A DNA stretch of 64,000 nt, taken from a virus. Lineage: Duplodnaviria; Heunggongvirae; Uroviricota; Caudoviricetes. The stretch spans positions 82,564 through 146,563 of IMG/VR virus record IMGVR_UViG_3300044712_002337; one strand, written 5' to 3'. Positions 1,683-61,072 of this stretch are shown here, in pieces (position 1 is the stretch's first letter; every line of letters starts with the position of its first letter). Below the pieces are notes generated by a model, which saw nothing but the letters and a program-made list of their open reading frames with translations, ran no database searches and was not told the origin of the DNA. Position numbers and translations under genes: made by a program.

Positions 1683-1740
1683 TGGGGGCAAGCCCCCACG
1701 CCCCGCGGCCCGAAGGGCCGCATGTTAAAAGGAGAAAACC
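1683..1740. repeat. intergenic punctuation cassette: two hairpins + ATGTTAAAAGGAGAAAACC directly before ATG
   Basis: TGGGGGcaagCCCCCA, GCGGCCCgaaGGGCCGC, core. Confidence 0.6.
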
Positions 1741-2226
1741 ATGGGGTCATGGAACGAAACCGACACGGTCACACACGCCCCCGTGTTCCCGGGCGACGAG
1801 GTGGTGATGCTGGTGTACGCCCCCGACCGCGGGCGGGGGACGGAGTTCTTCTCCCGGGACTTCGAGCTCATCGCCAAGGGGAAGTACAACGATTACGGTT
1901 GGCTGGAGAAGACGCCGGGCCAGTGGTCGGACGGGATGAAGTTACGCGCGAAAGGGTTGGACGAGCCGTACGAACGAGCCCTCTTCGTCCACAAGAAGAC
2001 CTGGGACACCATCCTCATCGCCAGCCCGAAGAAGCTCCGCAAGCTGGCCGACCAGGCCGAGTTCGTGCTCAACTTCTGTTCGCGCAACCGTATCAACCCG
2101 GAGGCCGCCCTCGCCTTCAAGGGGATGCAGCACGCGAACCTGAAGGAGTACAAGGCGCTCATCGCCCTGATGGACGCGCGGGCGGCAGCGTGGGAACTCC
2201 GCGAGAGCGAGGAAAGAGATGAGTAA
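1741..2226 (+). CDS. hypothetical protein
   Basis: ATG preceded by AAAAGGAGAAAACC (SD-like) inside conserved ATGTTAAAAGG cassette; non-low-complexity 161 aa. Confidence 0.55.
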   Translation: MGSWNETDTVTHAPVFPGDEVVMLVYAPDRGRGTEFFSRDFELIAKGKYNDYGWLEKTPGQWSDGMKLRAKGLDEPYERALFVHKKTWDTILIASPKKLRKLADQAEFVLNFCSRNRINPEAALAFKGMQHANLKEYKALIALMDARAAAWELRESEERDE

Positions 2227-2812
2227 TCCTGAAACAGGGGCGGCAGACGGGCTCGGCGGGAGCGGAGCCCCTGCCCGCCTGTGGAGCCGCCCCTTCTCCG
2301 CGGACCAGGTAGACAAGTTGAAAGAACTCTTCCCGGACCGATTCCCCAAACCTGCGAGGGAACCGAGTGTGACAAGCTGGACAGAGGCGAACAACTACGG
2401 GAAGGAGCCCGACGACCACGAAGACTTGTTACCGCCGACCGTCCCGGAGAAGCCGGTGAGGGGGGAGCGGTACATGCGGCGACTCGCGTTCGGGTGGACG
2501 GTGTTCGGCTGGTGGAACCCGTCGTGCGAGGCGTGCTGCGAACTCGGCCCGGCGGAGCGGAAGGCGTGTCCGGCCTGCCGGGGGACGGGGGACGGCCCGC
2601 CCGAGCCGGACGCCCTGGCCCGCGAGTTGACCGAGGAGGACGCGCGGCTCCTGGCGTTCGGGCGACAGGCCGTTGCCGCCCTGGCCGCCGCCCCCATCCC
2701 CCGCCTGGGCGAGACGCTCGACGAGTTCCGCGGGCGGTACTCCAAGTGGTACCGGGAGGCCCGCCACCCGGCGATGCGGGCCTTCCCGGGGGTCGACCCG
2801 TTCGTCGGGTGA
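2219..2812 (+). CDS. hypothetical Cys-rich protein
   Basis: ATGA overlap with upstream gene; CxxC..CxxC motifs; stop TGA immediately followed by inverted cassette. Confidence 0.5.
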   Translation: MSNPETGAADGLGGSGAPARLWSRPFSADQVDKLKELFPDRFPKPAREPSVTSWTEANNYGKEPDDHEDLLPPTVPEKPVRGERYMRRLAFGWTVFGWWNPSCEACCELGPAERKACPACRGTGDGPPEPDALARELTEEDARLLAFGRQAVAALAAAPIPRLGETLDEFRGRYSKWYREARHPAMRAFPGVDPFVG

Positions 2813-2889
2813 ATTTCCCTTTTAAAATCGCTGGCGTAGCCCGCGGGGGTCTGGGGTTCACCCCAGATGGGTCTGGGGCGCAGCCCCAG
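2813..2889. repeat. cassette (inverted): TGA-ATTTCCCTTTTAAAATC then GC hairpins
   Basis: CTGGGGttcaCCCCAG, CTGGGGCgcaGCCCCAG. Confidence 0.6.
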
Positions 2890-2939
2890 CCTGAGCACAT
2901 AAATCCAAACAACCTCTTCGAAGTGAGGCGTAGCCGAAC

Positions 2940-3404
2940 GTGAAGAAAGGGACACCGACCGTGAGCGTCCGGGCGGCCGCCGCCCGCGACGTGGCGAACA
3001 TCGCCGAGCTGGAGGCGGACGTCGGCTCGGACTGGACGGCCGAGCGGGTGGCGGCGGCGGTCAAGGCCGTCCGCTCGGCCTCGTACGTGGCGTACGCCGA
3101 CGGGGTGTGCGTCGGGCACGCCCTGGGGGTGCGGGAGCCGGCCCGCATCCGCCTGCTCCGCTGCTGGGCGGAGACGCCGGACGTGTACGCCCGGCTGGCC
3201 CGGCGGGTGGCCGAGCGGGTGGCCCGGGGGCCGGAGCGGCGGGCGGGGGTCGCCCTCCCGGCCGGCCCCGAGCGGTCCGACCTGTACGCCGGGTTCCTGG
3301 CCGCCGACTGGACGTACCAGGCGGCGGACGCCGCCGTGGACCAGGGCGGGCGGGAGTTCCGGTCGGAGGACCGGATGGTGTTCATGGTTTCGAAACCGGC
3401 CTGA
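2940..3404 (+). CDS. hypothetical protein, possibly GNAT-like acetyltransferase
   Basis: ORF track 154 aa; weak GNAT-like pattern; GTG start. Confidence 0.35.
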   Translation: MKKGTPTVSVRAAAARDVANIAELEADVGSDWTAERVAAAVKAVRSASYVAYADGVCVGHALGVREPARIRLLRCWAETPDVYARLARRVAERVARGPERRAGVALPAGPERSDLYAGFLAADWTYQAADAAVDQGGREFRSEDRMVFMVSKPA

Positions 3405-3419
3405 CCGAGGGGGTGACCC

Positions 3420-3626
3420 ATGTGGCGGGAGGACGAGGACGACCGGTCCACCCGGGCGTCCAGCCCGTTCGTGTTCCGCCGGGCGAAGGCCCGGCGGATG
3501 CGCTTCGACGACGACACGGTGGCGTTCTGCCAGCACCTGGTCGAGCACCAGGTGGACCTGTGGAAGGCGATGGACTTCATCAACCTGAAACTGAGCGAAG
3601 TGAGGGCGGGACATGATGTTCGCTGA
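3420..3626 (+). CDS. hypothetical small protein
   Basis: 68-aa ORF, ATG start. Confidence 0.35.
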   Translation: MWREDEDDRSTRASSPFVFRRAKARRMRFDDDTVAFCQHLVEHQVDLWKAMDFINLKLSEVRAGHDVR

Positions 3627-3749
3627 CTACGTGGGCACCCCGGCCGACTACGACCTGCTGGGGTGGGTCATCATGGCCGGGCTGCTGGCCGACACGCTGT
3701 ACAAGTACTGGCGCGGCTCCGCCCGCTAAACCCCTTCGGAGAGTGCGCG

Positions 3750-5412: not shown

Positions 5413-5967
5413 ATGGCGGAAGAAGACAAGCCGGAAGCCCTCCGCCTGGGCGAAGCCCTGCTCGCCCTGGAGCGGTGGGGCCGCAAGCACTACCGCTACG
5501 AAATCCACGGCGGGCCGGGCGTGATGCCGGGCGACGAGGGGTGGGTGCGGCTGTCCGCCGCGGGGCGGACGGTGACCGTCTCCCACTGCGAGATGGACCG
5601 GGGCGGGGAGGACGAGAACGGTGATGACACCACCACCCACTACGGCGACGTCGCCGACTCCATCCGCGAAGCCCTCCGCCTGTGGCACGCCGACACGACC
5701 CCGAAGCGGTTTAGTGTGACCGTGTACACGCCCGGCGGGCACCACCTTCTACCCGCGCCCGAACGGGTGAAGTATTGGGTCCACCCCGAGCAGGTCACCG
5801 TCTGGCTCGTCGCTGGAACCGAGGCCGAAGCGGTCGAGACGGCGAAAGCTCTGGTGCTGCCCAAGCTGGAAATCATCCCCCGGACGTCGGCGACCGAGAA
5901 GTGGGAGGCCGACTCCGACATGGAGCGGTATGTGCCGACCAACGTGTCGGCTACGCCGACATTTTAA
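5413..5967 (+). CDS. hypothetical protein
   Basis: 184-aa ORF; TAA stop lies inside an ACATTTTAAAAG motif. Confidence 0.5.
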   Translation: MAEEDKPEALRLGEALLALERWGRKHYRYEIHGGPGVMPGDEGWVRLSAAGRTVTVSHCEMDRGGEDENGDDTTTHYGDVADSIREALRLWHADTTPKRFSVTVYTPGGHHLLPAPERVKYWVHPEQVTVWLVAGTEAEAVETAKALVLPKLEIIPRTSATEKWEADSDMERYVPTNVSATPTF

Positions 5968-7200
5968 AAGATGTGAAGTCCACATAATTGGGTGTTTGAC
6001 GTGTACTTAACGGTTGATATCAGACTCATCGCAACGTCCGCCCAGGCGGAGTCGCTGGCCCGCACGGCGGTCGCCTTCGCCGCCGCCTGCGACCACGTGA
6101 GCGGGTACGCGTTCGAACACAAGCTATTCGGCCGGTTCGCCCTCCAGAAGGCGGTGTACCGCGACGTCCGGGAGAAGTTCGGCCTGTCCGCCCAGACGGC
6201 CTGCCTGGTCGTCGCCCGGGTGGCCGCCGCGTACAAGCGGGAGCGGGGCGTCCGCCACGAGTTCCGCCGGCCGACCGCCACCTACGACGACCGCGTCCTC
6301 GCCGTCGACCTCCCCGCCCGGACGGTCTCCGTCTGGACGGTGGACGGCCGCCTGAAGGGGGTACCGTTCGTCTGCGGGGCGCGGCAGGCCCGCCAACTGG
6401 AGGGCGAGCGGGGCGAGGCCGACCTGGTGTGCCGGGACGGGCGGTGGTACCTGCTGGTGACGGTGACCGCCCCGGAAAAGCCGCTCCGCCCGGCGACGGA
6501 CTACCTGGGGGTGGACCTCGGGGTGTACACCCTAGCGGCGGACAGCGATGGCGTCCGACACTCGGGCAAAGCGGTCAAGAGCGTCCGCCACCGCCACCGG
6601 CGGCTTCGCCGCAAACTCCAGAAGAAGAACACCAAGTCGGCCCTGCGGCGACTTCGCTTGCTGGCCGGGAAAGAAGGAAGGTTCGCTACCCATGTAAACC
6701 ACGTGTTGTCGAAAAAGTTGGTCTCGGTCGCCGAACGCACCGGCCGCGGGATTGCCCTGGAGGACCTCCGGGGTATTCGCGGGCGGATCAGGGCTAGCAG
6801 GGCGACGCGGGCTCAGCTCCACTCCTGGGCGTTCGCCCAGCTCCGGTCGTTCATCGCCTACAAGGCCGCCCTGGCGGGCGTCCCAGTGGCGGTGGTGGAC
6901 CCGGCGAACACCTCTCGCGCGTGCGCCGCTTGCGGGCACTGCGAGAAGGCCAACCGCCGCGGACGAGAGTTTCTTTGTCGCTCGTGCGGTTTTACCGCCG
7001 ACCCCGACACCAACGCGGCGGAGAACATCCGTCGGGCCGCAGTAAACCGGCCGAACGCCTGGAACGGCTCCGCCGTGGCCGGGTAAAGCTCATGACAAAA
7101 ACCTTGGGCGTTTACGTGGCCCGACTTGTCAACGCAGGGCTTATGAGTGACGGAGTAATAGTCACTCCAAGGCTACCACTTGAGAAGAGGATTAGGGGTC
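5968..7200 (+). mobile_element. IS200/IS605-family (IS1341-like, TnpA-less) element carrying tnpB copy 1; boundaries approximate
   Basis: TnpB ORF with subterminal hairpins (ATGTGaagtcCACAT upstream; GAGTGACggagtaatagTCACTC downstream, candidate omega-RNA region). Confidence 0.5.
5992..7086 (+). CDS. tnpB: TnpB (OrfB) RNA-guided nuclease, IS200/IS605 family
   Basis: RuvC-I GVDLG, RuvC-II ALEDL, C-terminal CxxC..CxxC zinc finger and RuvC-III DPDTNAAENI. Confidence 0.85.
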   Translation: MFDVYLTVDIRLIATSAQAESLARTAVAFAAACDHVSGYAFEHKLFGRFALQKAVYRDVREKFGLSAQTACLVVARVAAAYKRERGVRHEFRRPTATYDDRVLAVDLPARTVSVWTVDGRLKGVPFVCGARQARQLEGERGEADLVCRDGRWYLLVTVTAPEKPLRPATDYLGVDLGVYTLAADSDGVRHSGKAVKSVRHRHRRLRRKLQKKNTKSALRRLRLLAGKEGRFATHVNHVLSKKLVSVAERTGRGIALEDLRGIRGRIRASRATRAQLHSWAFAQLRSFIAYKAALAGVPVAVVDPANTSRACAACGHCEKANRRGREFLCRSCGFTADPDTNAAENIRRAAVNRPNAWNGSAVAG

Positions 7201-7205: not shown

Positions 7206-7535
7206 ATGAAAATCGAAACAGACTTGACCGTTAAGTGGCCCGACCTGTTCACCGGCGGGCCGGCGTCCAAGGTGTACACGCTCGAATTCCTGGCCGACTG
7301 CGTGCACCGCGCCTTCCAGGGCACCCGGTACAAGGTGCTGCTCCAGCAGGGCGGGGCGGTGAAGACGCCCCACCTGCAACTGGACGCGGACGGGACCGTG
7401 TACGGGTCGGCCAGGCTGAAGGCCGGGGCCGAGTTCCTCCACTCCCTGCCCGACGCCGTCCGGGCCGACCTGAAGGCCCTGCTCGACCCGGTCCGGCTGT
7501 TCGTCGGGGACGGGGCGGACCTGCGGGTTCGGTGA
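7206..7535 (+). CDS. hypothetical protein
   Basis: internal ATG (MKIETDL...) of ORF 6921..7535; TGA followed directly by CTTTCCCTTTTAACAT. Confidence 0.45.
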   Translation: MKIETDLTVKWPDLFTGGPASKVYTLEFLADCVHRAFQGTRYKVLLQQGGAVKTPHLQLDADGTVYGSARLKAGAEFLHSLPDAVRADLKALLDPVRLFVGDGADLRVR

Positions 7536-7570
7536 CTTTCCCTTTTAACATGTGTGGGGCTCCGTCCCAC
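7536..7570. repeat. cassette (inverted): TGA-CTTTCCCTTTTAACATG + hairpin
   Basis: seen directly after stop of 7206..7535. Confidence 0.55.
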
Positions 7571-7591
7571 GACCCCCGAAAGAGAGTAAGC

Positions 7592-10854: not shown

Positions 10855-10951
10855 CTATCTTATAAAAATGTGGGGACACCCCACAGCCCCCGCGGGCCGG
10901 TGGCCCGCATGTTAAAAGGGGAAACACACTTCCCGCGAGCGGAGCGAGCCC
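10855..10951. repeat. full-length cassette: CTATCTTATAAAAATG + 2 hairpins + ATGTTAAAAGGGGAAACAC + CGCGAGCGGAGCGAGCCC + ATG
   Basis: hairpins near-identical to copy at 1683. Confidence 0.65.
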
Positions 10952-11353: not shown

Positions 11354-12247
11354 GTGACCAAGGTGCTGTTCGTGTACGGCGGCCGGCGGGTGGAACTGGC
11401 GAACGAGTTCATCCGTCACCACTGTGTGGTGACAGGTTATGAAGCGTCCGAGCGAGTGCCGCTCGCGTCGATCGCCGAAGTGGGCGTCGGCCTACCCTGG
11501 GACCACCCCGAGTTCGCCGACGACGTGGCCGGGACCGCCGAGGAAATCGGCGCCGACCTGATTGTCCCGCTCGGGTGCGGCGCGGCGGCCGTGCTGGCCG
11601 GGGCCGACGTGCCGTGTCCCGTCGTGGCCCACCCGCCCGGCACGGCGAAAGTCTGCCACGACAAGCTCGCCTTCGCCGAGGCGATGAAAGCCCTGCCCGA
11701 CCTGTACCCGTTCCCCCGCCAGGGGAAGCCGTGCGTCAAGAAGCCGCGGCTGGGCTTCGGGGGGAACGGGGTCGTTTACGAAACCGAATACGACCCGGTC
11801 TTCGCTGACAAGGCGTCGGTCTACCAGGCCCGCTTGCGCGGGCCGGAATATTCGGTCGATGCCTACTTCAACCGGGACGGCAGCCTGGCCGCCGCCACCG
11901 TCCGGGAGCGGCTGCGGGTGGCGGGCGGCGAGGTGATTGAGAGCGTGACGGTCGAAAAACCGGAGCTCGCGCAAGCACTCGCTCGTGTTGGAAACATCCT
12001 CCCCTTCCACGGCCCGGTTTGCGCCCAGTTCATGTGCGGTCCTGACGGACCACAGGTGTTGGAGGTGAACGCGCGGTTCGGCGGCGGCTGCACCCTGAGC
12101 GTCGCGGCCGGGATGGACCTGGTCGGGGCGACGCTGGCCGACTTCGTCCGCGGGGAGTCGGTCGACCTCAAACCGGGCGTGCCCGGGGTGTACCTGACGC
12201 GGTCGTACCGCGACCATGTGTTCCAGCCTGAGATGGCCTCTGCGTGA
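11354..12247 (+). CDS. ATP-grasp family ligase
   Basis: VKKPRLGFGGNGV and LEVNARFGGG motifs of the ATP-grasp fold; GTG start. Confidence 0.6.
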   Translation: MTKVLFVYGGRRVELANEFIRHHCVVTGYEASERVPLASIAEVGVGLPWDHPEFADDVAGTAEEIGADLIVPLGCGAAAVLAGADVPCPVVAHPPGTAKVCHDKLAFAEAMKALPDLYPFPRQGKPCVKKPRLGFGGNGVVYETEYDPVFADKASVYQARLRGPEYSVDAYFNRDGSLAAATVRERLRVAGGEVIESVTVEKPELAQALARVGNILPFHGPVCAQFMCGPDGPQVLEVNARFGGGCTLSVAAGMDLVGATLADFVRGESVDLKPGVPGVYLTRSYRDHVFQPEMASA

Positions 12248-12282
12248 TATTTTACCCTTTTAAAATCACGGGGGCACCCCGT
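12248..12282. repeat. cassette (inverted): TGA-TATTTTACCCTTTTAAAATC + hairpin CACGGGGgcaCCCCGTG
   Basis: after stop of ATP-grasp gene. Confidence 0.55.
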
Positions 12283-12309
12283 GGGCCCCGAAGACAAGGA
12301 GTCATCAAC

Positions 12310-12638: not shown

Positions 12639-13298
12639 ATGACCGTTATCGACCGGCTGAAAGCCCTCCCCCACCAGCACCCCGACTTCTCGGTGTGGCT
12701 GGAGAACGAAGACCATTACTCTTTCTATTATAAAATTTTCCAGGCCCTGAACCCGGACTCCGTCCTGGAGCTGGGCACCTGCCTGGGGTTCTCGCTGGCC
12801 GCCGCGGCGATGGCCCTGCCGGCCAAGGACCTGCACCTGTCCTGGGTGGACGACGAGTCCTACCTGCCGGGGTCGAACGAACTCGCCTGGGAGAACATCT
12901 GGGGCGTGTTCAAGGGGCGGTTCGAGGGGGAGAGCCCGTTCCACCCCCTGCGGTACTGGACCTCGCCCCCGCCGGCCGGGCGGGTGCGGGGCCTCTACCA
13001 GTTGGTCCACGTGGACGGGGACCATTCTTATGACGGGTGTCTGAAAGACCTGGAGTACGCCGAAGCCGTCCGGCCGCAAATCATCCTCGGGCACGACTAC
13101 CACCTGGAAGAGGGCGTCCGGCGGGCCGTTTCCGGGTTCTGTGCGAAGCACTCCTACGCGCACTTCGTCCTCGACCGGTTCAAGCACGGCCTGTTTTGCG
13201 TCGACCGCACCGCCCGCGCCCCGGACACCCTGTGGCGGCTGGCGGCGGCGGACGTGGGCGGGGTGCGGGTGGTCGTCCCGGGGGCCGTGGGGGCGTAG
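12639..13298 (+). CDS. class I SAM-dependent methyltransferase-like protein
   Basis: VLELGTCLGFS (motif I-like) and VHVDGDHSYD; ATG preceded by CGTGAGCGAAGCGAACTC leader. Confidence 0.5.
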   Translation: MTVIDRLKALPHQHPDFSVWLENEDHYSFYYKIFQALNPDSVLELGTCLGFSLAAAAMALPAKDLHLSWVDDESYLPGSNELAWENIWGVFKGRFEGESPFHPLRYWTSPPPAGRVRGLYQLVHVDGDHSYDGCLKDLEYAEAVRPQIILGHDYHLEEGVRRAVSGFCAKHSYAHFVLDRFKHGLFCVDRTARAPDTLWRLAAADVGGVRVVVPGAVGA

Positions 13299-13321
13299 CC
13301 CCCACATGTTAAAAGGGGAAA
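13281..13321. repeat. cassette: hairpin GTGGGGGcgtagCCCCCAC (contains upstream TAG) + ATGTTAAAAGGGGAAAGTC
   Basis: before HAD-like gene. Confidence 0.55.
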
Positions 13322-13630
13322 GTCATCAAGCGAATCGCGTTCGACATCGACGGGGTGTTGCGGCCCGAGGGCCCGGCCGGCGACCGCTACCTGCAGCGGC
13401 CGGACGTGCGGGTGCGGGAGGCGATGCGGCGGGCCAAGGCGGCCGGTCATTTCGTGATGGCGTTCACGGCCGCCCCCTGGGGGGACTACCGGCTGACGAA
13501 ACTCTGGCTGGACGAGCACGGGTTCCCCGTGGACGTCCTGATTTGCGGAAAACCTAACTACGACTGCTTCTACGACGACCGGACGGTCAACTCGCTCTCC
13601 GCCTTCGAGGAGTTCCTGGATGCCCATTAA
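13322..13630 (+). CDS. HAD-superfamily hydrolase-like protein (start codon unresolved)
   Basis: in-frame VIKRIAFDIDGVL (HAD motif I DxDGV) lies upstream of first canonical start (GTG 13355); frame opens after TAA inside ATGTTAAAAGG. Confidence 0.4.
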   Translation, partial: VIKRIAFDIDGVLRPEGPAGDRYLQRPDVRVREAMRRAKAAGHFVMAFTAAPWGDYRLTKLWLDEHGFPVDVLICGKPNYDCFYDDRTVNSLSAFEEFLDAH

Positions 13631-15494: not shown

Positions 15495-15755
15495 ATGAGC
15501 ATCGCCGCCGACTGCCTGGACCTGGACCACAGCTTCGCCGACTGGCTGGTCCCCAGGCTCCGCCACCTGGCCTGTGACACCGACTGCTACCCGGAGGAGG
15601 TGGGCTCGCTGGAGAACTGGCAGCGCCTCCTGCACCGGATGGCCGACGGGTTCGCGCCGGTCGCCGTCGGGCACGAGCTGTCGCTCGCCGAGGGCGTCGC
15701 CCTGGACGAGGCCCTCGACCTGTTCCGGAAGCACTTCCGGGACTTGTGGCTGTAG
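15495..15755 (+). CDS. hypothetical protein
   Basis: ATG preceded by CTATCTTATAAAATAAC box and GCGAGCGGAGCGAAC leader. Confidence 0.4.
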   Translation: MSIAADCLDLDHSFADWLVPRLRHLACDTDCYPEEVGSLENWQRLLHRMADGFAPVAVGHELSLAEGVALDEALDLFRKHFRDLWL

Positions 15756-15822
15756 GTTTTCCCCTTTTAAAATCCGGGGCTCCCGCCCTCCCCGACACCC
15801 GACCCCGCGAGCGAGCCGAACC
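15756..15822. repeat. cassette (inverted): TAG-GTTTTCCCCTTTTAAAATC + GC-rich region + CCCGCGAGCGAGCCGAACC leader
   Basis: before sigma-like gene. Confidence 0.55.
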
Positions 15823-16632: not shown

Positions 16633-16965
16633 CGGAGACCCCCGTGTCCCAACCACCCGACGGCAAGTGCTACTTCTGTCAGGACGACTCCGAGCCGATT
16701 GCTTTTTCGGTCGAGTTCGACACCCACGTGCACGAGGCCTGCCTGGCCGCCCAGTCGCCGGACGACGAGACGGCTGCTGCCATGCGGCGGGAGCTGTACG
16801 GAGAGCCGAACTAAAGGTGGCGTGGATGCACCTCCGCCCCGAGCTGGAGGCCCTGAAGGCGGCCGTCGTGGCCGTGTTCGTGCGGGACGCGTGCAACACC
16901 TGGTAGTGGGGGCTGGGCCCCCACACCCCCCGTGGGCCCGCGGCCCACATCACGAGGAGAAATCA

Positions 16966-17186
16966 TGCCGTTCGACAAAGAGGAGTGGGTCCAGGGGGAC
17001 TACGACGACTTCCTGGGGATGGGACCGGACGAGGTGGCCGTCGTCGAGGCCCGGGGGTTCGCCGACGAGCACGGCCCGGTGATGAGCCGGCGGGGGTGGA
17101 CCAACGCCCAGGTGAAGGCGTTCTTCCGCGAGGCCTTGCCCCGATTTCTAGATGAGTACCACCGCGGGCTACGCCCGCGATGTTAA
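16966..17186 (+). CDS. hypothetical protein
   Basis: ATG after GAGGAG SD and two GC hairpins; TAA stop inside ATGTTAAAAGG. Confidence 0.4.
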
Positions 17187-17198
17187 AAGGTGAAAATC
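17164..17198. repeat. cassette: hairpin CGCGGGCtacGCCCGCG + ATGTTAAAAGGTGAAAATC
   Basis: contains stop TAA of 16966..17186. Confidence 0.55.
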
Positions 17199-17225
17199 AA
17201 CCTACCCCCGCGAGGGCCCCGAGCC

Positions 17226-19265: not shown

Positions 19266-19528
19266 CCCTCTTGGATTTCGTCAGTCACATCCCCTTCCCC
19301 GACGGGGGCTTCTCCCCCAGTACCAGGGAAGAGGTACTCCAAGCCCTGAAGACGTTCTACTGCCGGTTCTTCGCGGAGGACGGGCGGGAGGGGAGCGTGT
19401 TCGACGGCGAGGTGCTGGACGCCCTGGACGCGGTCGGGCGGGCCAAGCCGGACTGCCCGGACCGGCACGCCGCCGGGCCGTGCGCCTTCTCCGAGGGGCG
19501 GTGCGTGTACTGCTGGCGGCCGAAGTGA
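19262..19528 (+). CDS. hypothetical Cys-containing protein
   Basis: GTGA overlap; 88 aa. Confidence 0.35.
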
Positions 19529-19633
19529 TTTGTCCCTTTCAACATGTGGGCCGCAGGCCCACGAGGCCGTGGGGGTGAGCCCCCACCATGTTAAAAGGAA
19601 AAATCCAACTACCCCCTGTGAGCGGAGCGAACA
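19529..19633. repeat. complete palindromic unit: TGA-TTTGTCCCTTTCAACATG + 2 hairpins + CATGTTAAAAGGAAAAATC + TGTGAGCGGAGCGAACA + GTG
   Basis: left and right arms are reverse complements. Confidence 0.65.
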
Positions 19634-23072: not shown

Positions 23073-23175
23073 TCGCTCCGCTCACGTTTCGGGTCTGGGG
23101 CGCAACCCCAGGGGGTGTGGGGTGCAACCCCAGGGGGTGTGGGGCAAAGCCCCACATGTTAAAAGGAGGAAGTCA
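23073..23175. repeat. cassette on minus-gene strand: TGA-CTTCCTCCTTTTAACA + 3 hairpins (22-nt tandem) + GTGAGCGGAGCGAACGC + ATG
   Basis: between TIGR02996 paralogs 4 and 3. Confidence 0.6.
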
Positions 23176-26395: not shown

Positions 26396-27640
26396 ACGAC
26401 CGCCGGCTTCAGCCGGCGGCTTTGTGCCTCAGCGGTCTGGGCACTGATATGGGTGGTTTACGGCACCCCTAGCCGCGATGTTGCGCGCGGCGTTCTGGTC
26501 GGCGTGGGCGGCGTGCCCGCACGACGTACAGGAGAAGCGGTCTTGGGACTTCCGGCTCGCCTTGTCGATGTGCCCGCAGGCGAAGCACGTCCGCGACGTG
26601 TTGCGGGGGTCCACCGCCACCAGCGGCACCCCGGCCAACTTCGCCTTGTAGGTGAGGCAGTGCCGGAGGTGGTGGAACGCCCAGTTGGACAGCCGGGAGC
26701 GGTGCCGCGTGCGAACCGTTTTCTCCGTCCTGGTGCGGACGCCGTTGAGGTCTTCGACGGCGATACCCACGCCCAGACGGAGTGCCTTGGCGACAACCGT
26801 TTTGGAGATGCGGTGGTTCTCCCCCTTTTGGTAACGGGACTGCTTACCGGCGAGCGCCTTCAGCCGCCGCTTGGCGGACTTGGTTCCCCGGCGTTGGAAG
26901 CTTTGACGGGCCTTCAGGTGCCGCTTGCGGTGGCGTTCCACGTCCGCCCCGGTGTGCCGCTCGCCCTCGGAATCGGTGAGGACGTTGGCGATGCCCAAAT
27001 CCACCCCGAGGAAGGCCGACACCTCGGCGGCGGGCGGTTCGGGCACGTCGGCGGTGCAGTACAGGAAGAACTTCCCCCCGCGGTACACCAAGTCGGCCTG
27101 CCCCTTGAGGGCGTGCAGCGTGCCCGTGAAGTAGTCGCCGGCCACGTAGGGCACCAAAATCCGCCCGCCCATCGTGAGCAGGCTCACCCGGTCGACGCCC
27201 TTGAAGGAGAACGTCCGCTGGTCGTAGGTGACAGCCCCCAGGGGTTTGAACACCGGGCACTGGGTCTTGTCGCGGGCGAAGCACTCGACCGCCTTGCCGA
27301 TGGCGCGGACGGCGGTCTGCGAGGACACGCCGAACGTGTCCCGGAGGGCGCGGTAGCAGAGCTTGTGGATGGACGGCTGGGAGAACACCCGGTTCTCAAA
27401 CCCCACCCGCGCCGCTTCGGTGGCGGCGGCGTTGAAGGCCCGCATGTACGCGAGCAGGGCTGGCGCTTGCCCGGCGTCCGGCAGCAGTTTGATTTGCACG
27501 ACGAGTTTCACGACGGCATTTTAGGATGCCGTTTGTCCGTAATCAACCCCGGAGAGCGGCTTACCTCTGTCGCCTGAAGGCGACAGTCTCACGCCGCGAA
27601 TTTATGAGAGCGGGCTGTCGCCCGCATGTTAAAAAGGAAA
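26396..27640 (-). mobile_element. IS200/IS605-family element carrying tnpB copy 3; boundaries approximate
   Basis: 5' subterminal hairpins CTGTCGCCttcaGGCGACAG and GGCATcctaaaATGCC; 3' hairpin GCCGCCGGCTgaaGCCGGCGG. Confidence 0.5.
26429..27511 (-). CDS. tnpB: TnpB (OrfB) RNA-guided nuclease, IS200/IS605 family, copy 3
   Basis: GVDLGIANV, AVEDL, CFACGH...CTSCG zinc finger, HADQNAARNI. Confidence 0.85.
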   Translation of the reverse strand: MKLVVQIKLLPDAGQAPALLAYMRAFNAAATEAARVGFENRVFSQPSIHKLCYRALRDTFGVSSQTAVRAIGKAVECFARDKTQCPVFKPLGAVTYDQRTFSFKGVDRVSLLTMGGRILVPYVAGDYFTGTLHALKGQADLVYRGGKFFLYCTADVPEPPAAEVSAFLGVDLGIANVLTDSEGERHTGADVERHRKRHLKARQSFQRRGTKSAKRRLKALAGKQSRYQKGENHRISKTVVAKALRLGVGIAVEDLNGVRTRTEKTVRTRHRSRLSNWAFHHLRHCLTYKAKLAGVPLVAVDPRNTSRTCFACGHIDKASRKSQDRFSCTSCGHAAHADQNAARNIAARGAVNHPYQCPDR

Positions 27641-27645
27641 AACCA
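27610..27645. repeat. cassette: hairpin GCGGGCtgtcGCCCGC + ATGTTAAAAAGGAAAAACC + ATG
   Basis: abuts 5' end of IS copy 3. Confidence 0.55.
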
Positions 27646-27809
27646 TGACCGTGACGCTGATTGCCGCCGCCGTCCTGTGCGGCATCGTCGGGGTGGGCGG
27701 GGCGATGGAGTTGACGCTCGACGCCCCCTCCCGGTCCGCCTGGGTGCGGTTCGGGGTGGGCGCCACCGGACTCCTCCTCTGCGGCGGACTATTTTCCCTT
27801 TTAAAATAG
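27646..27809 (+). CDS. hypothetical small membrane protein
   Basis: 54-aa hydrophobic ORF between two cassette copies; TAG stop lies inside TTTTCCCTTTTAAAATAG. Confidence 0.3.
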
Positions 27810-27827
27810 CTTTCGCGGAGTCGCCCC

Positions 27828-28238
27828 GTGATACGAGCGTGCGAACTGTGCGGCCGGCCGGCGGTGAGCTGGTACGCCGCCCGCCGGGCGGCCCGGGCCG
27901 CCCCGCCCTTCCGCCGGCGGATGCGGGCCCCCAAGGTGCGGAAGGACCACCCCCTGTGCCCGGGGTGCCACAGCCGGACGAACCAGCCCAACTACCTGTG
28001 GGAGAGAAGACCGATGTACGGGGTGGGAGAGTACGTGTACGCGGCCGAGTTCAACCCCGCCCGGGTGTACTGCGGGCGGGTGGTGTCGGCCGACCGGGTG
28101 GGGGTGTGCCTGCTCGGGCCGGACGACCGGGTGGCGTTCGTCCCGGCCGACCGGGTGTTCCGCACGGCCGAGGCGGCCACCGCCGAGGCGGCCCGGCTGG
28201 CGGCCGAGTGGGAGGCGGTGCGAGGCCGGGCGGGGTAG
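27828..28238 (+). CDS. hypothetical zinc-ribbon protein
   Basis: CELCG...CPGCH; GTG preceded by CGCGGAGTCGCCCC leader variant. Confidence 0.45.
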   Translation: MIRACELCGRPAVSWYAARRAARAAPPFRRRMRAPKVRKDHPLCPGCHSRTNQPNYLWERRPMYGVGEYVYAAEFNPARVYCGRVVSADRVGVCLLGPDDRVAFVPADRVFRTAEAATAEAARLAAEWEAVRGRAG

Positions 28239-29950: not shown

Positions 29951-30141
29951 AAGGGTGGCCTCCTACCTTTACTTTTTAAAATAGGTGTTTTAATACGAGA
30001 CCGTAAGGCCGCCCGCACTTCCCGCACGCCCACAGGCGGAACGCGAACTCCGGCCCGGCCGGGAGGACCTTGTCCACGCCGCCGCCGGCCGGCTTCATCG
30101 CCCCGCCACAGCGGGGAGTGCGGCACGCCTTGGGCGGGGCC

Positions 30142-30178
30142 GCGGGGTGGGACCCCGCGATGTTAAAAGGGGAAGTCA
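30142..30178. repeat. cassette: hairpin + GATGTTAAAAGGGGAAGTCA (TGA of minus gene inside) Confidence 0.55.
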
Positions 30179-30925: not shown

Positions 30926-30995
30926 TGCTCGCTCCGCTCGCAAGAAGAGTACGGTTTTCACCTTTTCAAAATTCGGCCCGCAGGGCCAAGAGGCG
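30926..30995. repeat. cassette (minus strand): hairpin GGCCCtgcGGGCC + GAATTTTGAAAAGGTGAAAACC + GCGAGCGGAGCGAGCA + ATG Confidence 0.55.
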
Positions 30996-32404: not shown

Positions 32405-32451
32405 TTTAAAATTGGCGGCTACACCGCCCGGAGGCTGTGAAGTGTCTCCAC

Positions 32452-32781: not shown

Positions 32782-32828
32782 GGGCTTCGCCCTTTTAACA
32801 TGGGGCGGCGAACGCCGCCCGCGGGGGA
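32782..32828. repeat. cassette (minus strand): hairpin GGGCGGCGttcGCCGCCC + ATGTTAAAAGGGCGAAGCCC + ATG Confidence 0.55.
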
Positions 32829-34575: not shown

Positions 34576-34603
34576 ATATTAACTGTTTTTATAAAGTAGT
34601 CAA
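34576..34603 (-). promoter_or_regulatory. sigma-70-like promoter driving the tRNA-like RNAs / downstream operon
   Basis: minus strand TTGACT -N16- TAATAT. Confidence 0.5.
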
Positions 34604-34690
34604 CACGACTTCGTCGTGATTTTAAAAGGGGTGACTCACACGGGCGATTTTCCTCTTTTAACAGGCGGGCCCCGCCCGCGGGGTGTCCCC
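34604..34690. repeat. composite cassette: GATTTTAAAAGGGGTGACTCA ... GATTTTCCTCTTTTAACAG + hairpins GCGGGCcccGCCCGC / GCGGGGtgtCCCCGC after dnaE-C stop Confidence 0.5.
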
Positions 34691-38209: not shown

Positions 38210-38284
38210 GATGACGTAGTTGAGGTTGATAACTTCACCCTTTCGAAATGCGGGCGGAGCCCGGGGGGCCGTGGGGCGCCCCCG

Positions 38285-38557: not shown

Positions 38558-38585
38558 GGGAGGCTGGCTCGGGGGTTCGGGGCCG

Positions 38586-38622
38586 CGGGGGCGGGCCCCC
38601 GCATGTTAAAAGGGGAAAGTCA
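38586..38622. repeat. cassette: hairpin GCGGGGGCggGCCCCCGC + CATGTTAAAAGGGGAAAGTCA Confidence 0.55.
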
Positions 38623-42542: not shown

Positions 42543-42615
42543 AGGGGTCTCCGGGCGGGCACGGCCCGCGGGGGTTAGGGGGCAGAGCCCCCGGATGTTA
42601 AAAGGGGGAAGTCCG

Positions 42616-42924: not shown

Positions 42925-42994
42925 GAAAAGGGGAATTTTTCACCTTTCAACATCCGGGCCGCAGGCCCGCGGGGCACTGGGGGCGGAGCCCCGG

Positions 42995-45100: not shown

Positions 45101-45162
45101 GCTCGGCTTCGCCTCACTCCCGGGGTTGTGGGGCGGAGCCCCACATTTTAAAAGGGTGAAAA

Positions 45163-45629
45163 CTACGTTCGGGAGGACGCCCCGTTCAACTCGAACGTCA
45201 GTTCGAGGTGGTTCCGCCGCCCGCAGAAGTGCGAGCCGACGAACCCGGCGGCGAGCAGGTTCTTGAGCGACGCGAAGTTGTCCAGGTCGACGGCGGTCAC
45301 CAGCCGGGCCACCTTCTTCTTGCGGGCGTACGCGACGCGCGCCTCTAACAGGCGAAGCTGAAGGCCCCGCCCGCGGAACTGCGGCAGGACATAGGTGGGC
45401 CCGGCCCAGGCGATGCCGCCCGCCGGCGCCGGGTCCATGCCGCCGTACCCGGCCAACCTCCCGTCGACCACGGCCCGCCAGTAGTGCCGCTCTTGCGGCA
45501 CGGACAACCCCGCGTCCACCATGTCATGCAGAACCAGCGGGGACAACTGCTCCCACTTGTGCGGGCCGTCCACGTGGACCCCGGGTGGGAACCCGTTGAC
45601 CAGCAGGGAAATCCGTTCGCGAAGCGTCA
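45163..45629 (-). CDS. GNAT-family acetyltransferase (start approximate)
   Basis: LPQFRGRGLQLRLLEARVAYAR motif; TTG start overlapping primase stop. Confidence 0.45.
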
Positions 45630-48009: not shown

Positions 48010-48030
48010 ACCCTCGTGTTCGATTTCGGG

Positions 48031-48078
48031 ACCCGCGGGGTACCCCCGCGGATTTTAAAAGGGTGAAATCACACTCAG
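48031..48078. repeat. cassette: hairpin CCGCGGGGtacCCCCGCGG + GATTTTAAAAGGGTGAAATCACACTCA Confidence 0.55.
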
Positions 48079-48530: not shown

Positions 48531-48563
48531 CGCTCACCTCGTTCGCAGAAAGAGTATGGACTT

Positions 48564-48594
48564 CGTCCTTTTAAAATGAGCGGCTTCGCCGCTC
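48564..48594. repeat. cassette (inverted): CGTCCTTTTAAAAT + hairpin GAGCGGCttcGCCGCTC Confidence 0.5.
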
Positions 48595-48605
48595 TGTCCC
48601 CCACA

Positions 48606-50545: not shown

Positions 50546-50584
50546 CGGATTCTTCCCTTTTTAAAATTGCGGCCGACAGGCCGC

Positions 50585-51037
50585 CTAGTCGAGGTCGTGG
50601 AACACGGACGCCTTGCGGGCCGACGGCGGCGGGGCCTGGGGGCCGCATTTCGGCGGGTCGGGAGCAGGCGCCGGCGGAGGCGGTAACGGGGTCGTCGGCT
50701 CCGCCTCCCAGTTCCCTCGGGCTTTCAACAGGGTGGCCCGCTTGGCGACCGCCTTCATCAGCGGGGGCGAGCCGAGGGAGTACCCCCAGTTGAACTCTTT
50801 GTCTTTTAAGAGGGATATTAACGGCTCATGCCCGTAGTCCTTGACCATCCCGTTCGCGTACGTCACCTGCTGGCGGAAGAACTTGAGCCACCTGGCCTGC
50901 TTCCAGAACTGCGGGGGGAGCGGGCCGAGCCCCTCGGCGGCGGCCCGCCGCTCGCACATCCGCTCGGCCGCCCACTGGGCGGCGGTCACCTTCTTGTCGG
51001 TGTACTTGCTGTCGAAGCGGGGGGACTTGGTGGCCAT
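50585..51037 (-). CDS. hypothetical protein
   Basis: 150-aa ORF. Confidence 0.45.
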   Translation of the reverse strand: MATKSPRFDSKYTDKKVTAAQWAAERMCERRAAAEGLGPLPPQFWKQARWLKFFRQQVTYANGMVKDYGHEPLISLLKDKEFNWGYSLGSPPLMKAVAKRATLLKARGNWEAEPTTPLPPPPAPAPDPPKCGPQAPPPSARKASVFHDLD

Positions 51038-52352: not shown

Positions 52353-52448
52353 CGCTACCGCCCCCGGGGCCGCGGGGCTGCGCCCCGCATTTTAAAAGGG
52401 TGAAATGTCACCTCTCACCCCCTCATACCCGCCCGGGGCCCCGCGCGG

Positions 52449-53381: not shown

Positions 53382-53558
53382 GTGCAGCGTCTGGGACTGT
53401 GCCCAGTCAGCGTGGGCGGCCGTCCCGTTCGGGTGGGCCACGTCGTGCCGGACGGCGGTGCAACTGCGGGCGGCCTCGCTGGCCGAATGTCGGAACGTGG
53501 ACACAGGACGACTCCGGCGGCGGGGCGGGCGAGCGGGGGACACCGCTCATACCCCGGT

Positions 53559-53603
53559 GGGGCCCGCCGAAGTCAATTTTTTAAAAGGGTGAATTAACCT
53601 TCA
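53559..53603. repeat. cassette: CCCCaccGGGG + CAATTTTTTAAAAGGGTGAATTAACC abutting RNR stop Confidence 0.5.
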
Positions 53604-56429: not shown

Positions 56430-56528
56430 CGCAAAGAGTGGGTGGAATGTTTCCTTTTACCGTCACGCGGGGGGCGGAGCCCCCGAAGCCCCGTCGGCCC
56501 GCGGCCGACATTTTAAAAGGGGAAATTA
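56430..56528. repeat. cassette: leader + hairpins + ACATTTTAAAAGGGGAAATTA Confidence 0.5.
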
Positions 56529-56724
56529 CACGTCCGGGCAGACCGGCCGGACCGCCTTGTCGCCCAGCGGGTGCTTCGCCACCTCCACCCGGAACGGGCG
56601 GGGCCGGGCGTCCGGGCCGGACACGGCGTTCAGCCGGGCCCACAGGTCGCCGGCATACACGTCGTATTCCAAAGAATAACTCCGTAGGGGGTGAACGAAC
56701 CGCTCACCGGCACCCGGCCGGGGT

Positions 56725-59297: not shown

Positions 59298-59847
59298 GCG
59301 CCGCCACCCCCCACAGCCCGCCGGCGGCGGCCACCGCCCGCTCCACCTCGCCCCCGGTCCGCCGGCCGACGCACCGGTAGGTGGGCTCGTCCCGGTCGGG
59401 GTTGCTCGGCGGCCCTTCGAGCACCGCCCAGTGGCGGTGCCGGGCCAACCCCCGGCACAGCTTTTCGAGCCGGGACCGCCGCCGCGGGCCGCACAGGGCC
59501 TCCTCGATGCGGCCGCGGACCTCCTCGTCCTCGAACTGGGTGCCGATCCCGACCAGGAACCGGTAGCGGGTGAGCGGCTCCAGGATTTCCACCCCGCGGA
59601 CCGCCTCCACCCGGCCGAGGTCGGCCTCGGTCACGTCGAACGGGGCGGCGGCCACCCACATGGCGCAGTGGCGGGTGAGCAGGTTGCGGCGGTCGTTGCA
59701 CACCAGCCCCAGGTTGGTGGCCGCGACGGGCGGGTCGACGAAGGTGATTCTCCCCCGCACCTCGTCCGCCAGGTCCTCCCACGGGGCCCCGCCGGGCGGC
59801 TCGGGGCGGGCGAGGGGGTCGACCCACGGGAGCCATCGGATGGTCAT
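59290..59847 (-). CDS. hypothetical protein
   Basis: 185-aa ORF. Confidence 0.45.
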   Translation of the reverse strand: MTIRWLPWVDPLARPEPPGGAPWEDLADEVRGRITFVDPPVAATNLGLVCNDRRNLLTRHCAMWVAAAPFDVTEADLGRVEAVRGVEILEPLTRYRFLVGIGTQFEDEEVRGRIEEALCGPRRRSRLEKLCRGLARHRHWAVLEGPPSNPDRDEPTYRCVGRRTGGEVERAVAAAGGLWGVAARG

Positions 59848-60650
59848 ACTTTCCGGAACTCCGTGGTCAGTTCGAACGTGCCGTCCGGGAGTGGGACTTT
59901 TTGATAATCACCGAACAAATTAGGTGAGTCCGAAACCAAGACGTCCAACATCGCGGCCGCCAGCTTGCGGATTTCCGGCTCGGCGTGGCGGCTCCCCCGC
60001 TGCTCCAGGAAGTGCCGGGCGGCGCGGGCGTTCAGCGTGCAGGTGATTTTCGTCTCGGTCGCGTTCGGCAGGACGGAGCGGGCGGCCTGGCGGGCGGCCT
60101 TGCGGATGTCCGTTTTAGAAGCGTCCGCCGGGAGCATGGCCGCCGCCCGCGAATCCGGGTCGGCCAGTTTTGCGGCCAGTTTGTTGGACAGCGACACGTA
60201 CATGTTGTGAGCGTTGACCATCGCCACCCCCCACATCGCCCGCAGTTCCGGGTCTGCCGCGATGACGTCCGGGCACACGTACTCGGCCACCGACTCGTCC
60301 ACGTACCGCTGGCTCAACTGGCTGTACGCCCAGCCGGCCCGATGCCGGACTAGTTCATGGGAGAGCGAGCGGGAGATGCCGGTGATGATAAAAGTCCAGA
60401 CGGCGTGCTCGGCGACTGAGCCATGCCCCGTCTCCAGAATGTGTCCGAGGTACGCCTTATTCCCGCCGGGGCGAGGTTTGGCGTAGCTCATGTAACAAAT
60501 CCGGCCGGCCGTCTCGGTGACCACCTCGGCGGCCACCTCGCTGTCGCTCTCCCAGGTCACCTCGTGGTCCGCCAGGAAGCGGTCCAGTTCGCCCTGGACG
60601 AGGGTCTGCTTGCTCAGCAGGTAGACCGACGGCTCGGTGATGAGTTTCAT
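59844..60650 (-). CDS. thyX: flavin-dependent thymidylate synthase ThyX
   Basis: ThyX signature ELVRHRAGWAYSQLSQRY (RHRxxxxxxxSxR). Confidence 0.8.
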   Translation of the reverse strand: MKLITEPSVYLLSKQTLVQGELDRFLADHEVTWESDSEVAAEVVTETAGRICYMSYAKPRPGGNKAYLGHILETGHGSVAEHAVWTFIITGISRSLSHELVRHRAGWAYSQLSQRYVDESVAEYVCPDVIAADPELRAMWGVAMVNAHNMYVSLSNKLAAKLADPDSRAAAMLPADASKTDIRKAARQAARSVLPNATETKITCTLNARAARHFLEQRGSRHAEPEIRKLAAAMLDVLVSDSPNLFGDYQKVPLPDGTFELTTEFRKV

Positions 60651-60706
60651 TTCACCCTTTTAACATTGCGGGCGGGGCCCGCGGGGGTGTGGGGGCGTCC
60701 CCCACG

Positions 60707-61003
60707 TCAGAGGCGGACGGCCCGCGGCCCGACCGCCGGCCCCGACTCCCGGGCGTGCCCGGCCACGCCCCACAGGTGGTCGACGCTGTCGGCCAGCCGC
60801 CCGTCCCCGAATTTCTCCCCGACGGCCGCCAGCAGGCGGGCCAGCTTCGGGTTCCAGTCGGCCAGGCTCTCCATCAGCCGGCCGAGGTCGCGGGCCGACC
60901 CGCCGGGCGGGAGCACCAGGCGGGCCGTGTACCCGTCCGCGTCGGCCTCGAACACGACCGCCGGCTTGGCGGGCTCGGACGGGGGGCGGGGGAAGGGCCA
61001 CAT
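60707..61003 (-). CDS. hypothetical protein (leaderless candidate)
   Basis: ATG 6 nt downstream of TAAAAT. Confidence 0.4.
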   Translation of the reverse strand: MWPFPRPPSEPAKPAVVFEADADGYTARLVLPPGGSARDLGRLMESLADWNPKLARLLAAVGEKFGDGRLADSVDHLWGVAGHARESGPAVGPRAVRL

Positions 61004-61009
61004 GTTACT

Positions 61010-61038
61010 ATTTTACAGAAACCAGGCCGAAGAGTCAA
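61010..61038 (-). promoter_or_regulatory. sigma-70-like promoter, leaderless arrangement
   Basis: minus strand TTGACT -N17- TAAAAT -agtaac- ATG. Confidence 0.5.
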
Positions 61039-61040
61039 CC

Positions 61041-61072
61041 CCTCCCCGGGCCCGCGGGGCGTCCGATTTATT
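61041..61072. repeat. cassette: CCCGCGGG + GATTTATTTTAAAAGGGTAAAATATCA abutting minus-gene stop Confidence 0.5.

Follow-up and report, generated by a model that had tools for sequence, protein, structure and literature searches.

A hairpin-and-core cassette repeated at the gene junctions of a large temperate phage, and its possible role as REP-like intercistronic punctuation

In a few phage groups, short repeats are known from the intergenic spaces: the stoperators, the start-associated sequences (SAS/ESAS) and the PeSL elements. The stoperators of Cluster A mycobacteriophages, which are the sites of the L5 gp71-type repressor, are asymmetric 13-16 bp sites that number more than 20 and lie in short gaps between a stop and a start codon (PMC9283540). 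SAS/ESAS, found in Cluster K mycobacteriophages, are asymmetric Shine-Dalgarno (SD)-like repeats of unknown function located just 5' of start codons; an inverted repeat with a variable spacer stands ahead of about half of them, and the family is confined to one phage lineage and absent from the host (PMC3203893). PeSL, from T4-type phages, extend from stop to start around ORFans and consist of a GGGG...CCCC stem-loop, an AT-rich segment and an SD, an arrangement proposed to drive modular shuffling (PMC2839356). The REP, BIME and REPIN units of bacterial chromosomes, which RAYT transposases mobilise, are short (20-60 nt) extragenic sequences, in which an imperfect GC-rich palindrome is flanked by a conserved non-palindromic head; these lineage-specific units are present many times over, in either orientation and now and then as inverted doublets (PMC3116915). 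Here we describe a cassette from a 64,000-nt stretch of a Caudoviricetes genome (IMG/VR record IMGVR_UViG_3300044712_002337, positions 82,564 to 146,563; hereafter the window), which combines a structure-conserved hairpin and a sequence-conserved head with two differentiated orientations inside operons, and which is unusually dense, being present in half of all gaps.

The cassette survey covered 72 kb of rebuilt sequence with its gene table (window positions -1447 to 70650), the window having been extended with a 95,375-bp Logan assembly contig from run SRR26046407 (window position = record position minus 1572). Gene boundaries, and the orientation of each copy, were taken from the assembly's own gene calls. 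On both strands of the window, the 16-mer core ATGTTAAAAGGGGAAA (also written ATKTTAAAAGGGGAAA) gave 28 matches at 3 or fewer mismatches, as against a mean of 0.07 in dinucleotide shuffles of the window, none of which (0/100) reached 28. With a position weight matrix (PWM), weaker copies were added at 5961, 29967, 30957, 38234, 48562 and 53578, bringing the total to 34 for the window and to 38 over the whole 72 kb. A covariance model (R1), proposed along with the original prediction and built from the window copies, recovered 4 untrained copies outside the window at 29-39 bits. The claim that one short element recurs at many junctions on both strands is thereby upheld, for a family larger than was first recognized. 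Of 65 intergenic gaps that are 25 nt or longer, 34 hold a cassette; the density is about 1 per 1.9 kb, and 18 of the 19 TTTTAAAA octamers of the 72 kb fall within cassettes. The core centre, UUUUAAAA, is strand-symmetric and supplies almost all octamers of this kind in the 68% GC genome. A search of the window against Rfam returned 0 matches at gathering thresholds, in keeping with the prediction of a structured intergenic element, tied to gene boundaries, that corresponds to no described motif.

A hairpin next to the core, likewise part of the original prediction, was present in 30 of the 38 copies, compared with 22% of random positions, when the stem had to have 6 bp or more with no more than 1 mismatch, the loop 3-4 nt, and the hairpin to end 0-2 nt (mostly 0-1) before the core. 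The typical stem is of 6-8 bp and GC in composition. In a fixed-register alignment of the stems 68.5% of cells were paired, as against 51% after shuffling and 38-48% in slid registers, and the covariation score was 0.40, as against 0.18 for shuffled stems (0/500 shuffles reached 0.40). Stem sequences vary while pairing is kept, as in GCGGGCC/GGCCCGC, GTGGGGC/GCCCCAC, CACGAC/GTCGTG, GTCGGC/GCCGAC, GAGCGGC/GCCGCTC and CCGTGC/GCACGG; the stems are conserved as structure, not as sequence. In predicted folds the hairpins are closed and the AU-rich centre is largely unpaired, although some of them pair a portion of the core's G-run or C-run with the flanks.

At least 8 copies, drawn from both of the orientation classes described below (F and R), share a compound layout of about 60 nt, consisting of hairpin 1 (GTGGGGG...CCCCCAC), RCCCCC, hairpin 2 (GCGGGCC...GGCCCGC) and the core. 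Hairpins with the same loop also occur across the classes: CGCGGGCtacGCC(C/A)GCG is found at 17180 (F) and 2813 (R), and GCGG(C/G)CtgtcG(G/C)CCGC at 50552 and 27626. Because the compound layout and identical loops are shared across classes, the units are related by descent and have been copied whole; the copies are homologous units, not convergent motifs.

Two types of copy were distinguished, one preceding a start codon and one following a stop codon. Relative to the called genes, 19 copies are forward (F), with the order stop, hairpin(s), core, start on the mRNA strand, and 19 are reversed (R), with the order stop, reverse-complement core, hairpin, 20-35 nt, start; both of the arrangements originally predicted are thus borne out by the assembly's gene calls, as are the stop codons within the core at 5965, 17184 and 27807. 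In F copies, the first hairpin usually begins at or over the upstream stop codon, and the distance from core to start is either 0-7 nt (6/19) or 24-33 nt (10/19). In 13 of the 19 R copies the stop lies 0-7 nt from the core, so that the hairpin starts 16-23 nt past the stop. The original prediction had the TGA stop of the R arrangement embedded in TGACTTTCCC, which holds for about 4 R copies, the others using TAG, TAA or a TGA 0-7 nt away. Similarly, its suggestion that the core supplies an SD and couples translation applies to the 6 F copies at 0-7 nt, in which AAGGAG or AAGGGG would serve as the SD, but not to the 10 in which the start lies 24-33 nt on, mostly via a leader motif. A reading of the core as an SD covers these 6 copies and leaves the best conservation, that of the R cores, unexplained.

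The leader motif, CTTTCTGCGAGCGGAGCGAAC, occupies the space between core and start in most of the F copies at 24-33 nt. Searched for as a repeat, (CTTTCT)GCGAGCGGAGCGAAC, it was found in 12 copies where 0.67 were expected. Eight of the 12 are intergenic, sense-oriented and immediately 5' of a start codon, with or without a cassette upstream (530-546, 10933-10949, 12620-12636, 15478-15494 and 19616-19632; on the minus strand, 23071-23087, 30927-30943 and 56418-56434). A similar leader was seen at 18470-18497 of L026, one of the relatives introduced below.

Successive copies alternate in strand above chance (25/37 steps, p = 0.03). In the left arm (-1286 to 19603) the first 12 cassettes alternate strictly (- + - + ...; shuffle p = 0.008), so that each gene block there has inverted cores on either side; no such pattern was seen in the right arm.

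REP units located between co-transcribed genes end up as hairpins in the mRNA. We tentatively read the cassette in a similar way, as a REP-like unit that has spread by duplication and acts as intercistronic punctuation within polycistronic mRNAs, a reading that we find plausible, though short of probable. In such a scheme, a lineage-specific unit of 35-60 nt, made up of one or two GC stem-loops joined directly to the 16-nt head, would have been copied whole into about half of the gaps between cistrons, whether by recombination, template switching or an unseen enzyme. The hairpin would form a stable RNA clamp, and the UUUUAAAA centre beside it a rare single-stranded AU-rich patch, open to entry by ribosomes (in the F type, with the G-run as SD) or by a ribonuclease. 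In the F type, the purine-rich head precedes the next start and could couple termination upstream to the next initiation, leaving a protective 3' hairpin on the upstream cistron; in the R type, the pyrimidine-rich head would place the hairpin 16-23 nt past the stop, outside the footprint of the terminating ribosome, and the hairpin would come to lie 5' of the following cistron.

Of the 20 copies that could be scored, 16 have a C-run, as read on the mRNA strand, at the far flank of the hairpin (p = 0.012, post hoc), and the flank subtype correlates with class (7:2 vs 2:9; Fisher p = 0.02, post hoc). Together with the tight, class-specific distances to stops and starts, these features track the direction of transcription and not the orientation of the unit, and random flipping of a selfish element would not yield them; a role in RNA processing or mRNA stability would fit these direction-tracking features best. 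Several points weigh against the punctuation proposal. The direction-aware statistics reach p of about 0.01-0.02 and are post hoc, and every RNA-level or functional step we infer from the sequence. The asymmetry between G.U and A.C mismatches, which would reflect selection at the RNA level, is 2 vs 0 and comes from only 4 mismatches. No RAYT/Y1 transposase (Y1_Tnp) was present among the Pfam matches recorded for the called genes from -1447 to 70650. Finally, R cores are more uniform than F cores; the 16-nt head is conserved as well or better in R than in F, with GGG invariant in 19/19 R copies. Because the two orientations differ as RNA, equal conservation in both points to DNA recognition or recent copying, and either would explain it more simply.

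That the 16-mer is as well conserved when reversed as when forward, or better, is what recognition of double-stranded DNA predicts, and it recommends an alternative in which the core is the asymmetric binding site of a phage regulator, an immunity repressor or silencer comparable to the stoperator system; the hairpins would then be ordinary intercistronic stem-loops, or would assist by cruciform extrusion. The density of about 1 per 1.9 kb in short gaps between stop and start resembles that of L5, whose more than 20 asymmetric 13-mers are similarly placed (PMC9283540). The phage is temperate, with an integrase and HTH_17 gene (20260-21758) and an open reading frame (ORF) at 10127-10393 with a weak match to a LexA-type DNA-binding domain, and the motif is lineage-specific, as regulator specificities are. 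Stoperators, however, are co-oriented with transcription and inactive when reversed (PMC9283540), and since they are so, the 19:19 split observed here is left unexplained. Nor does this alternative account for the join at 0-1 nt to a hairpin of variable sequence and conserved pairing, for the shared two-hairpin composite, or for the flank features that track transcription, and no candidate binding protein was identified. We regard it as doubtful but worth keeping in view.

Returning to intercistronic punctuation, a more specific form of it would make the cassette an orientation-coded switch of mRNA-segment stability, in which a ribonuclease cuts the UUUUAAAA centre at the foot of the GC clamp. 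Orientation would then decide which cistron owns the hairpin: in the F type the upstream cistron would hold it as a 3' protector, with a strong SD left for the next gene, and in the R type the downstream cistron would keep it as a 5' protector. A 40-nt module flipped either way could in this manner set relative expression along long phage operons. So detailed a scheme is decidedly unlikely to be right as it stands.

Promoters and terminators were recognized elsewhere in the sequence. Canonical hairpin-plus-T-run terminators occur at operon ends at 10789, 21759, 25253, 26396 and 55866. Two families of sigma-70-like promoter occupy other gaps: TTGAC-N17-cTATCTTATAAAA at 4497-4537, 10860-10880, 15446-15470 and 43316-43357 and at 67970, and TTTACA-N16/17-TA(t/g)AAT at 20234-20259, 39178-39215, 51038-51096, 55866 (extent 55900-55940) and 66386. 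Some of these promoters lie immediately past canonical U-tract terminators. Since promoters and terminators are recognizable in other gaps, the cassettes are placed inside operons, between these separate signals.

It is accordingly very improbable that the core itself directs transcription, whether as a phage-specific promoter or as a terminator of the weak intrinsic kind (hairpin then AUUUUAAAA). The reverse-complement core does contain a -10-like hexamer facing the hairpin, TAAAAT or TAACAT, of which TAAAAT matches 5/6 of the -10 consensus, and in R copies this hexamer faces the downstream gene; as many as 4 U come after the hairpin in F copies; and two ORFs match sigma-70 region 4. Each version, though, suits at most one class, and the other 19 copies would be antisense signals, for which reason the promoter and terminator readings were both rejected. 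The phage-specific promoter suggested in the original prediction is contradicted by the 19:19 orientation and by the better conservation of the reversed copies; no -35/-10 pair accompanies the core, no conserved -35 or TG extension was seen upstream of R copies, and a promoter scan of 30001-50000 gave 3 promoter-like sites, 0 of them at cassettes. The bidirectional terminator fared no better: the hairpin is followed by a U-tract on neither strand, the F tail being AUKUUAAAA, with no more than 4 U, and the R tail GRCCCCG; none of the cassettes passed the terminator scan; and terminator-like sites are not enriched (10 found vs 12.2 expected). As to the sigma factors said to be encoded here, what stands is weak sigma-70 region 4 matches, that of 15499-16632 lying below the Pfam cut-off.

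BLAST searches of GenBank phages, with nucleotide-near and protein queries, gave no close relative. An exact-core scan of IMG/VR returned 19 isolated matches, one per contig, and a degenerate pattern of hairpin end plus core returned single matches only, 89 from metagenome contigs and 83 from a set of 185,579 species, each represented by one genome; an adjacent hairpin was absent from all of the high-GC pattern matches inspected in the two sets. As the matches are isolated, in unrelated contigs and taxa, no host genome or other phage with the cassette family was found, and nothing was found in support of the Planctomycete host that the original prediction assumed. Relatives were reached through DnaE (50-58% identity) in L024, L026 and L027, which keep the order RecA, DnaB, primase, PDDEXK, DnaE-N, RNase T, DnaE-C; in 56 kb of these syntenic relatives, 0 copies of the core or cassette were found with either the PWM or the covariance model. 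In L027, the closest and equally GC-rich, comparable junctions carry GC hairpins of a plain kind with TTGACC-N17-TACTAT promoters after them; by this comparison, the intergenic stem-loops look ancestral in the phage group, and the AT-centred head looks like an addition made in this lineage.

A lineage-specific, extragenic family, present in both orientations and with copies related by descent, might also be a miniature mobile element (MITE, REP or REPIN-like) that is purely selfish and without function for the phage, tolerated only in intergenic space, its links to stops and starts being a by-product of tight gene packing. The two inverted doublets, at 19530/19588 and 34619/34649, are REPIN-like in this respect (PMC3116915), ORF ends run into the unit and use its TAA or TGA, and in the replication module 7/7 cassettes touch an ORF without a homologue in the relatives' loci, in a module with only one junction between two conserved genes. 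Random insertion, on the other hand, would not be expected to produce the correlation of subtype with orientation or the tight classes of stop and start distance; compensatory stem changes alongside intact heads imply selection on each copy; there was no sign of target-site duplications, terminal inverted repeats or a transposase; and the 72 kb read contains neither a RAYT gene nor the head that defines REP, which is GTAG-type and 5' of the palindrome. A purely selfish origin is therefore, in our judgement, unlikely.

The doublets are only 2 among the 38 copies. The first, at 19526-19607, consists of an R copy as its left half (19526..19567, minus strand) and an F copy as its right half (19566..19607, plus strand), giving the order reverse-complement core, hairpin, hairpin, core, and folds at -37 kcal/mol (z = -3.8). 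In the second, the copies at 34597..34638 (+) and 34645..34686 (-) face each other with 14 nt between the cores, the latter immediately past the stop of DnaE-C (34692). These two facing cassettes lie in the 472-nt gap that follows DnaE-C (34220-34691), where a promoter-like TTGACT-N16-TAATAT and a tRNA-Met (CAT; 34487-34556, minus strand) were also observed.

Three TnpB paralogs (OrfB_IS605 plus Cas12f-like TNB), whose proteins are 42-45% identical, are encoded at 6001-7086 (+), 17472-18590 (-) and 26429-27511 (-). No TnpA was seen, and BLASTN between the flanks of the three loci gave no similarity. Upstream of TnpB-1 and of TnpB-2, each read on its own strand, come a GC hairpin and ATTTTAAAA(G/A), and there the cassette consensus stops, which suggests that TnpB insertion sequences may have landed in cassette cores at a TTTAA-type target or transposon-adjacent motif (TAM). 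Cassettes hold 52 of the 84 TTTAA sites of the 72 kb. When the pre-insertion cassette was rebuilt across TnpB-1 it gave the top score (p about 0.02), but the control mean was already 29.6; the same test failed across TnpB-2. The cassettes seem to have offered TnpB-type insertion sequences a place to land in a genome otherwise without AT-rich targets. The reverse derivation, of the cassette from IS200/IS605 ends or PATE, was rejected: the flanks of the three TnpB loci are unlike one another, and the cassette lies outside the putative left end, 5' of it.

The individual copies, with scores in bits where given from covariance-model matches, are as follows. Among F copies on the plus strand, that at 1700..1741 (43.5 bits) consists of a second hairpin, GCGGCCCgaaGGGCCGC, and ATGTTAAAAGGAGAAA, with an ATG 3 nt on, and belongs to a composite that begins at 1683 (+) with hairpin TGGGGGcaagCCCCCA; the composite copy at 10887..10928 has its hairpin 1 from 10871 and a start 27 nt on, via the leader motif. 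Both of these examples, quoted as 1683 and 10871, had been correctly described. In the F copy at 17158..17199 the TAA of the upstream gene lies within the core, and in that at 27604..27645 the ATG of gene 27645-27809 comes 3 nt past the core. A degenerate F copy at 5939..5980 (22.5 bits) consists of hairpin GTCGGCtacGCCGAC and ATTTTAAAAG, then divergent DNA into the TnpB gene at 6001-7086. A degenerate composite at 16906..16964 (+), a hairpin-only match of the covariance model, reads hairpin 1, ACCCCCC, hairpin 2, ATCACGAGGAGAAATC; it keeps both hairpins and the SD, with CACG in place of the TTAAAA centre. The F copy at 13284..13325 (+) has the upstream TAG in its hairpin loop and is followed by a HAD-like ORF without a canonical start (13322-13630, plus strand). 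The catalytic motif of this ORF (IKRIAFDIDGVL) lies directly 3' of the GTCA of the cassette; the first ATG, GTG or TTG is a GTG within the motif, and the gene caller starts there (13355). Either the ORF uses a non-canonical start (ATC), or its original start was overwritten by the cassette.

R copies on the minus strand occur at 2809..2850, where the TGA of 2219-2812 adjoins the reverse-complement core of a composite with more hairpins to about 2895; at 7532..7573, immediately past the TGA of gene 7206-7535; at 12247..12288 (46.8 bits), 3 nt past the stop of gene 11354-12247; at 15754..15795, 2 nt past the stop of gene 15495-15755 and with a weak hairpin; and at 27788..27829, where the core lies within the final codons of gene 27645-27809 (TAG 27807) and the hairpin is weak. 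The R copy at 23134..23175 (+) belongs to the minus-strand gene 23159-23893 and has three tandem hairpins (23073-23155).

In the leftward-transcribed part, F copies are on the minus strand. That at 29963..30004 is weak (20.4 bits), with a poor, AT-rich hairpin; that at 30953..30994 is followed by the leader motif, with the start 31 nt on; and those at 32393..32434 and 32782..32823 have core-to-ATG distances of 7 nt and 4 nt. Further F copies lie at 38230..38271, 5' of an RNase T-like gene and with a diverged core (ATTTCGAAAGGGTGAA); at 42934..42975, a composite 5' of gene 42616-42909; at 48558..48599, 5' of gene 48075-48530; at 50548..50589, where the GTG of a RecA-like gene is 5 nt from the core; and at 60647..60688, a composite with the ATG of ThyX directly past the core. 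R copies of this part, on the plus strand, are found at 30138..30179, where stop and start overlap as ATGA and the core lies in the 5' end of gene 29976-30179; at 38581..38622, an exact core 1 nt past the TGA of gene 38620-39177; at 42573..42614, 3' of gene 42616-42909; at 45123..45164, 3' of the acetyltransferase gene 45163-45630; at 48030..48071, 3' of gene 48075-48530 and upstream of DnaB; at 52367..52408 (48.1 bits), 44 nt past the stop of gene 52449-53504; at 53556..53597, 3' of the ribonucleotide reductase gene and without an adjacent hairpin; at 56488..56529 (48.6 bits), a composite whose core adjoins a TAA; and at 61048..61089, overlapping the end of gene 61073-61549 and with a poor hairpin.

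By its gene content, the carrier of the cassettes is a large temperate phage with a genome of at least 95 kb. GC content is 63-74% across the window except for the last 2 kb (58%), and genes are directed rightward to about 29 kb, then leftward to about 66.6 kb. They encode a split DnaE-type polymerase with an intein/HNH insert, DnaB, a primase, a RecA-like protein, ribonucleotide reductase, ThyX and several glycosyltransferases, besides the integrase with the HTH_17 gene and the three TnpB. The DnaE-type polymerase is divided between two minus-strand genes, 34692-37190 and 39595-41616, about 2.4 kb apart, with the intein/HNH insert in the C-terminal part; the relatives have DnaE split likewise, but without HNH matches, and the identical DnaE protein was also found on a 176-kb contig (sources JGI and Logan). 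The integrase (20541-21758, minus strand) and the HTH_17 gene, within 20260-21758, adjoin a 425-nt gap (region to 22183). A canonical terminator lies in this gap, and TGACCCCAA(A)A is directly repeated there three or four times, possibly as arm-type sites of attP. Nucleotide- and sugar-modifying genes were observed at 11354-15445, 59844-60650 and 61570-62724, and at 1-1585 of L020; the group includes ATP-grasp, methyltransferases, a DegT-type aminotransferase, ThyX and several glycosyltransferases, with a dNMP kinase also in relatives, and would fit a hypermodified DNA base.

Whichever reading is adopted, punctuation of the mRNA or binding of a protein, the cassettes mark the boundaries of gene modules. 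Were the orientation logic proposed above to hold, a portable 40-nt module could tune single cistrons and insulate newly acquired genes in a compact genome, and might serve as a design rule for synthetic operons in GC-rich hosts; were the core instead a protein-binding grid, this large temperate phage would possess a counterpart of stoperator silencing that does not depend on orientation.

Several described systems were set aside on general grounds. Integron attC sites (GTTRRRY) do not agree with the T variants of the core, which lack GTT, or with the fact that most copies would be half-sites; the lambda or rrn boxA (UUUAACA) plus boxB would suit the copies of one orientation only; N4-type hairpin promoters and T3/T7-like initiation boxes would leave half of the copies wrongly oriented, and the sequence upstream is variable; and parS, IHF sites and shufflon sfx sites were considered and dropped. 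PeSL resemble the cassette as repeated intergenic units that pair a stem-loop with a conserved AT-rich segment, but each contains a complete sigma-70 promoter (-35 and -10), and they run in the sense orientation without exception, whereas the cassette has no promoter and lies in both. Stoperators are co-oriented, orientation-dependent and without an adjoining hairpin, in contrast to the 19 F and 19 R cassettes with a hairpin at 0-1 nt. SAS/ESAS share with the cassette a conserved, asymmetric, SD-containing repeat with an inverted repeat alongside and restriction to one phage lineage; they are, however, virtually of a single orientation and 3-8 nt from starts, whereas 19 of the 38 cassettes are reversed and only 6 of the 19 forward ones lie within 7 nt of a start. 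The sense-locked leader, CTGCGAGCGGAGCGAAC, is the closer, true counterpart of the start-associated sequences. With REP the cassette has in common a short, extragenic, palindromic, multi-copy unit (38 copies, in 34/65 gaps, 30/38 with a stem of at least 6 bp). Its head, ATKTTAAAAGGGGAAA, is 16 nt long, AT-centred and 3' of the palindrome, the 5' flank being a variable C-run or G-run, whereas the REP head is a GTAG or GTGG tetranucleotide, located 5' and recognized by RAYT, for which the called genes of the 72 kb gave no match; the replicative REPIN unit is an inverted doublet forming a long hairpin, whereas cassettes are mostly singlets; and the carrier is a phage, at about 1 copy per 1.9 kb, with orientation subtypes that correlate with the direction of transcription. 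The cassette thus differs in at least one defining feature from each of REP, SAS/ESAS, stoperators and PeSL, and is therefore not a member of any of these families.

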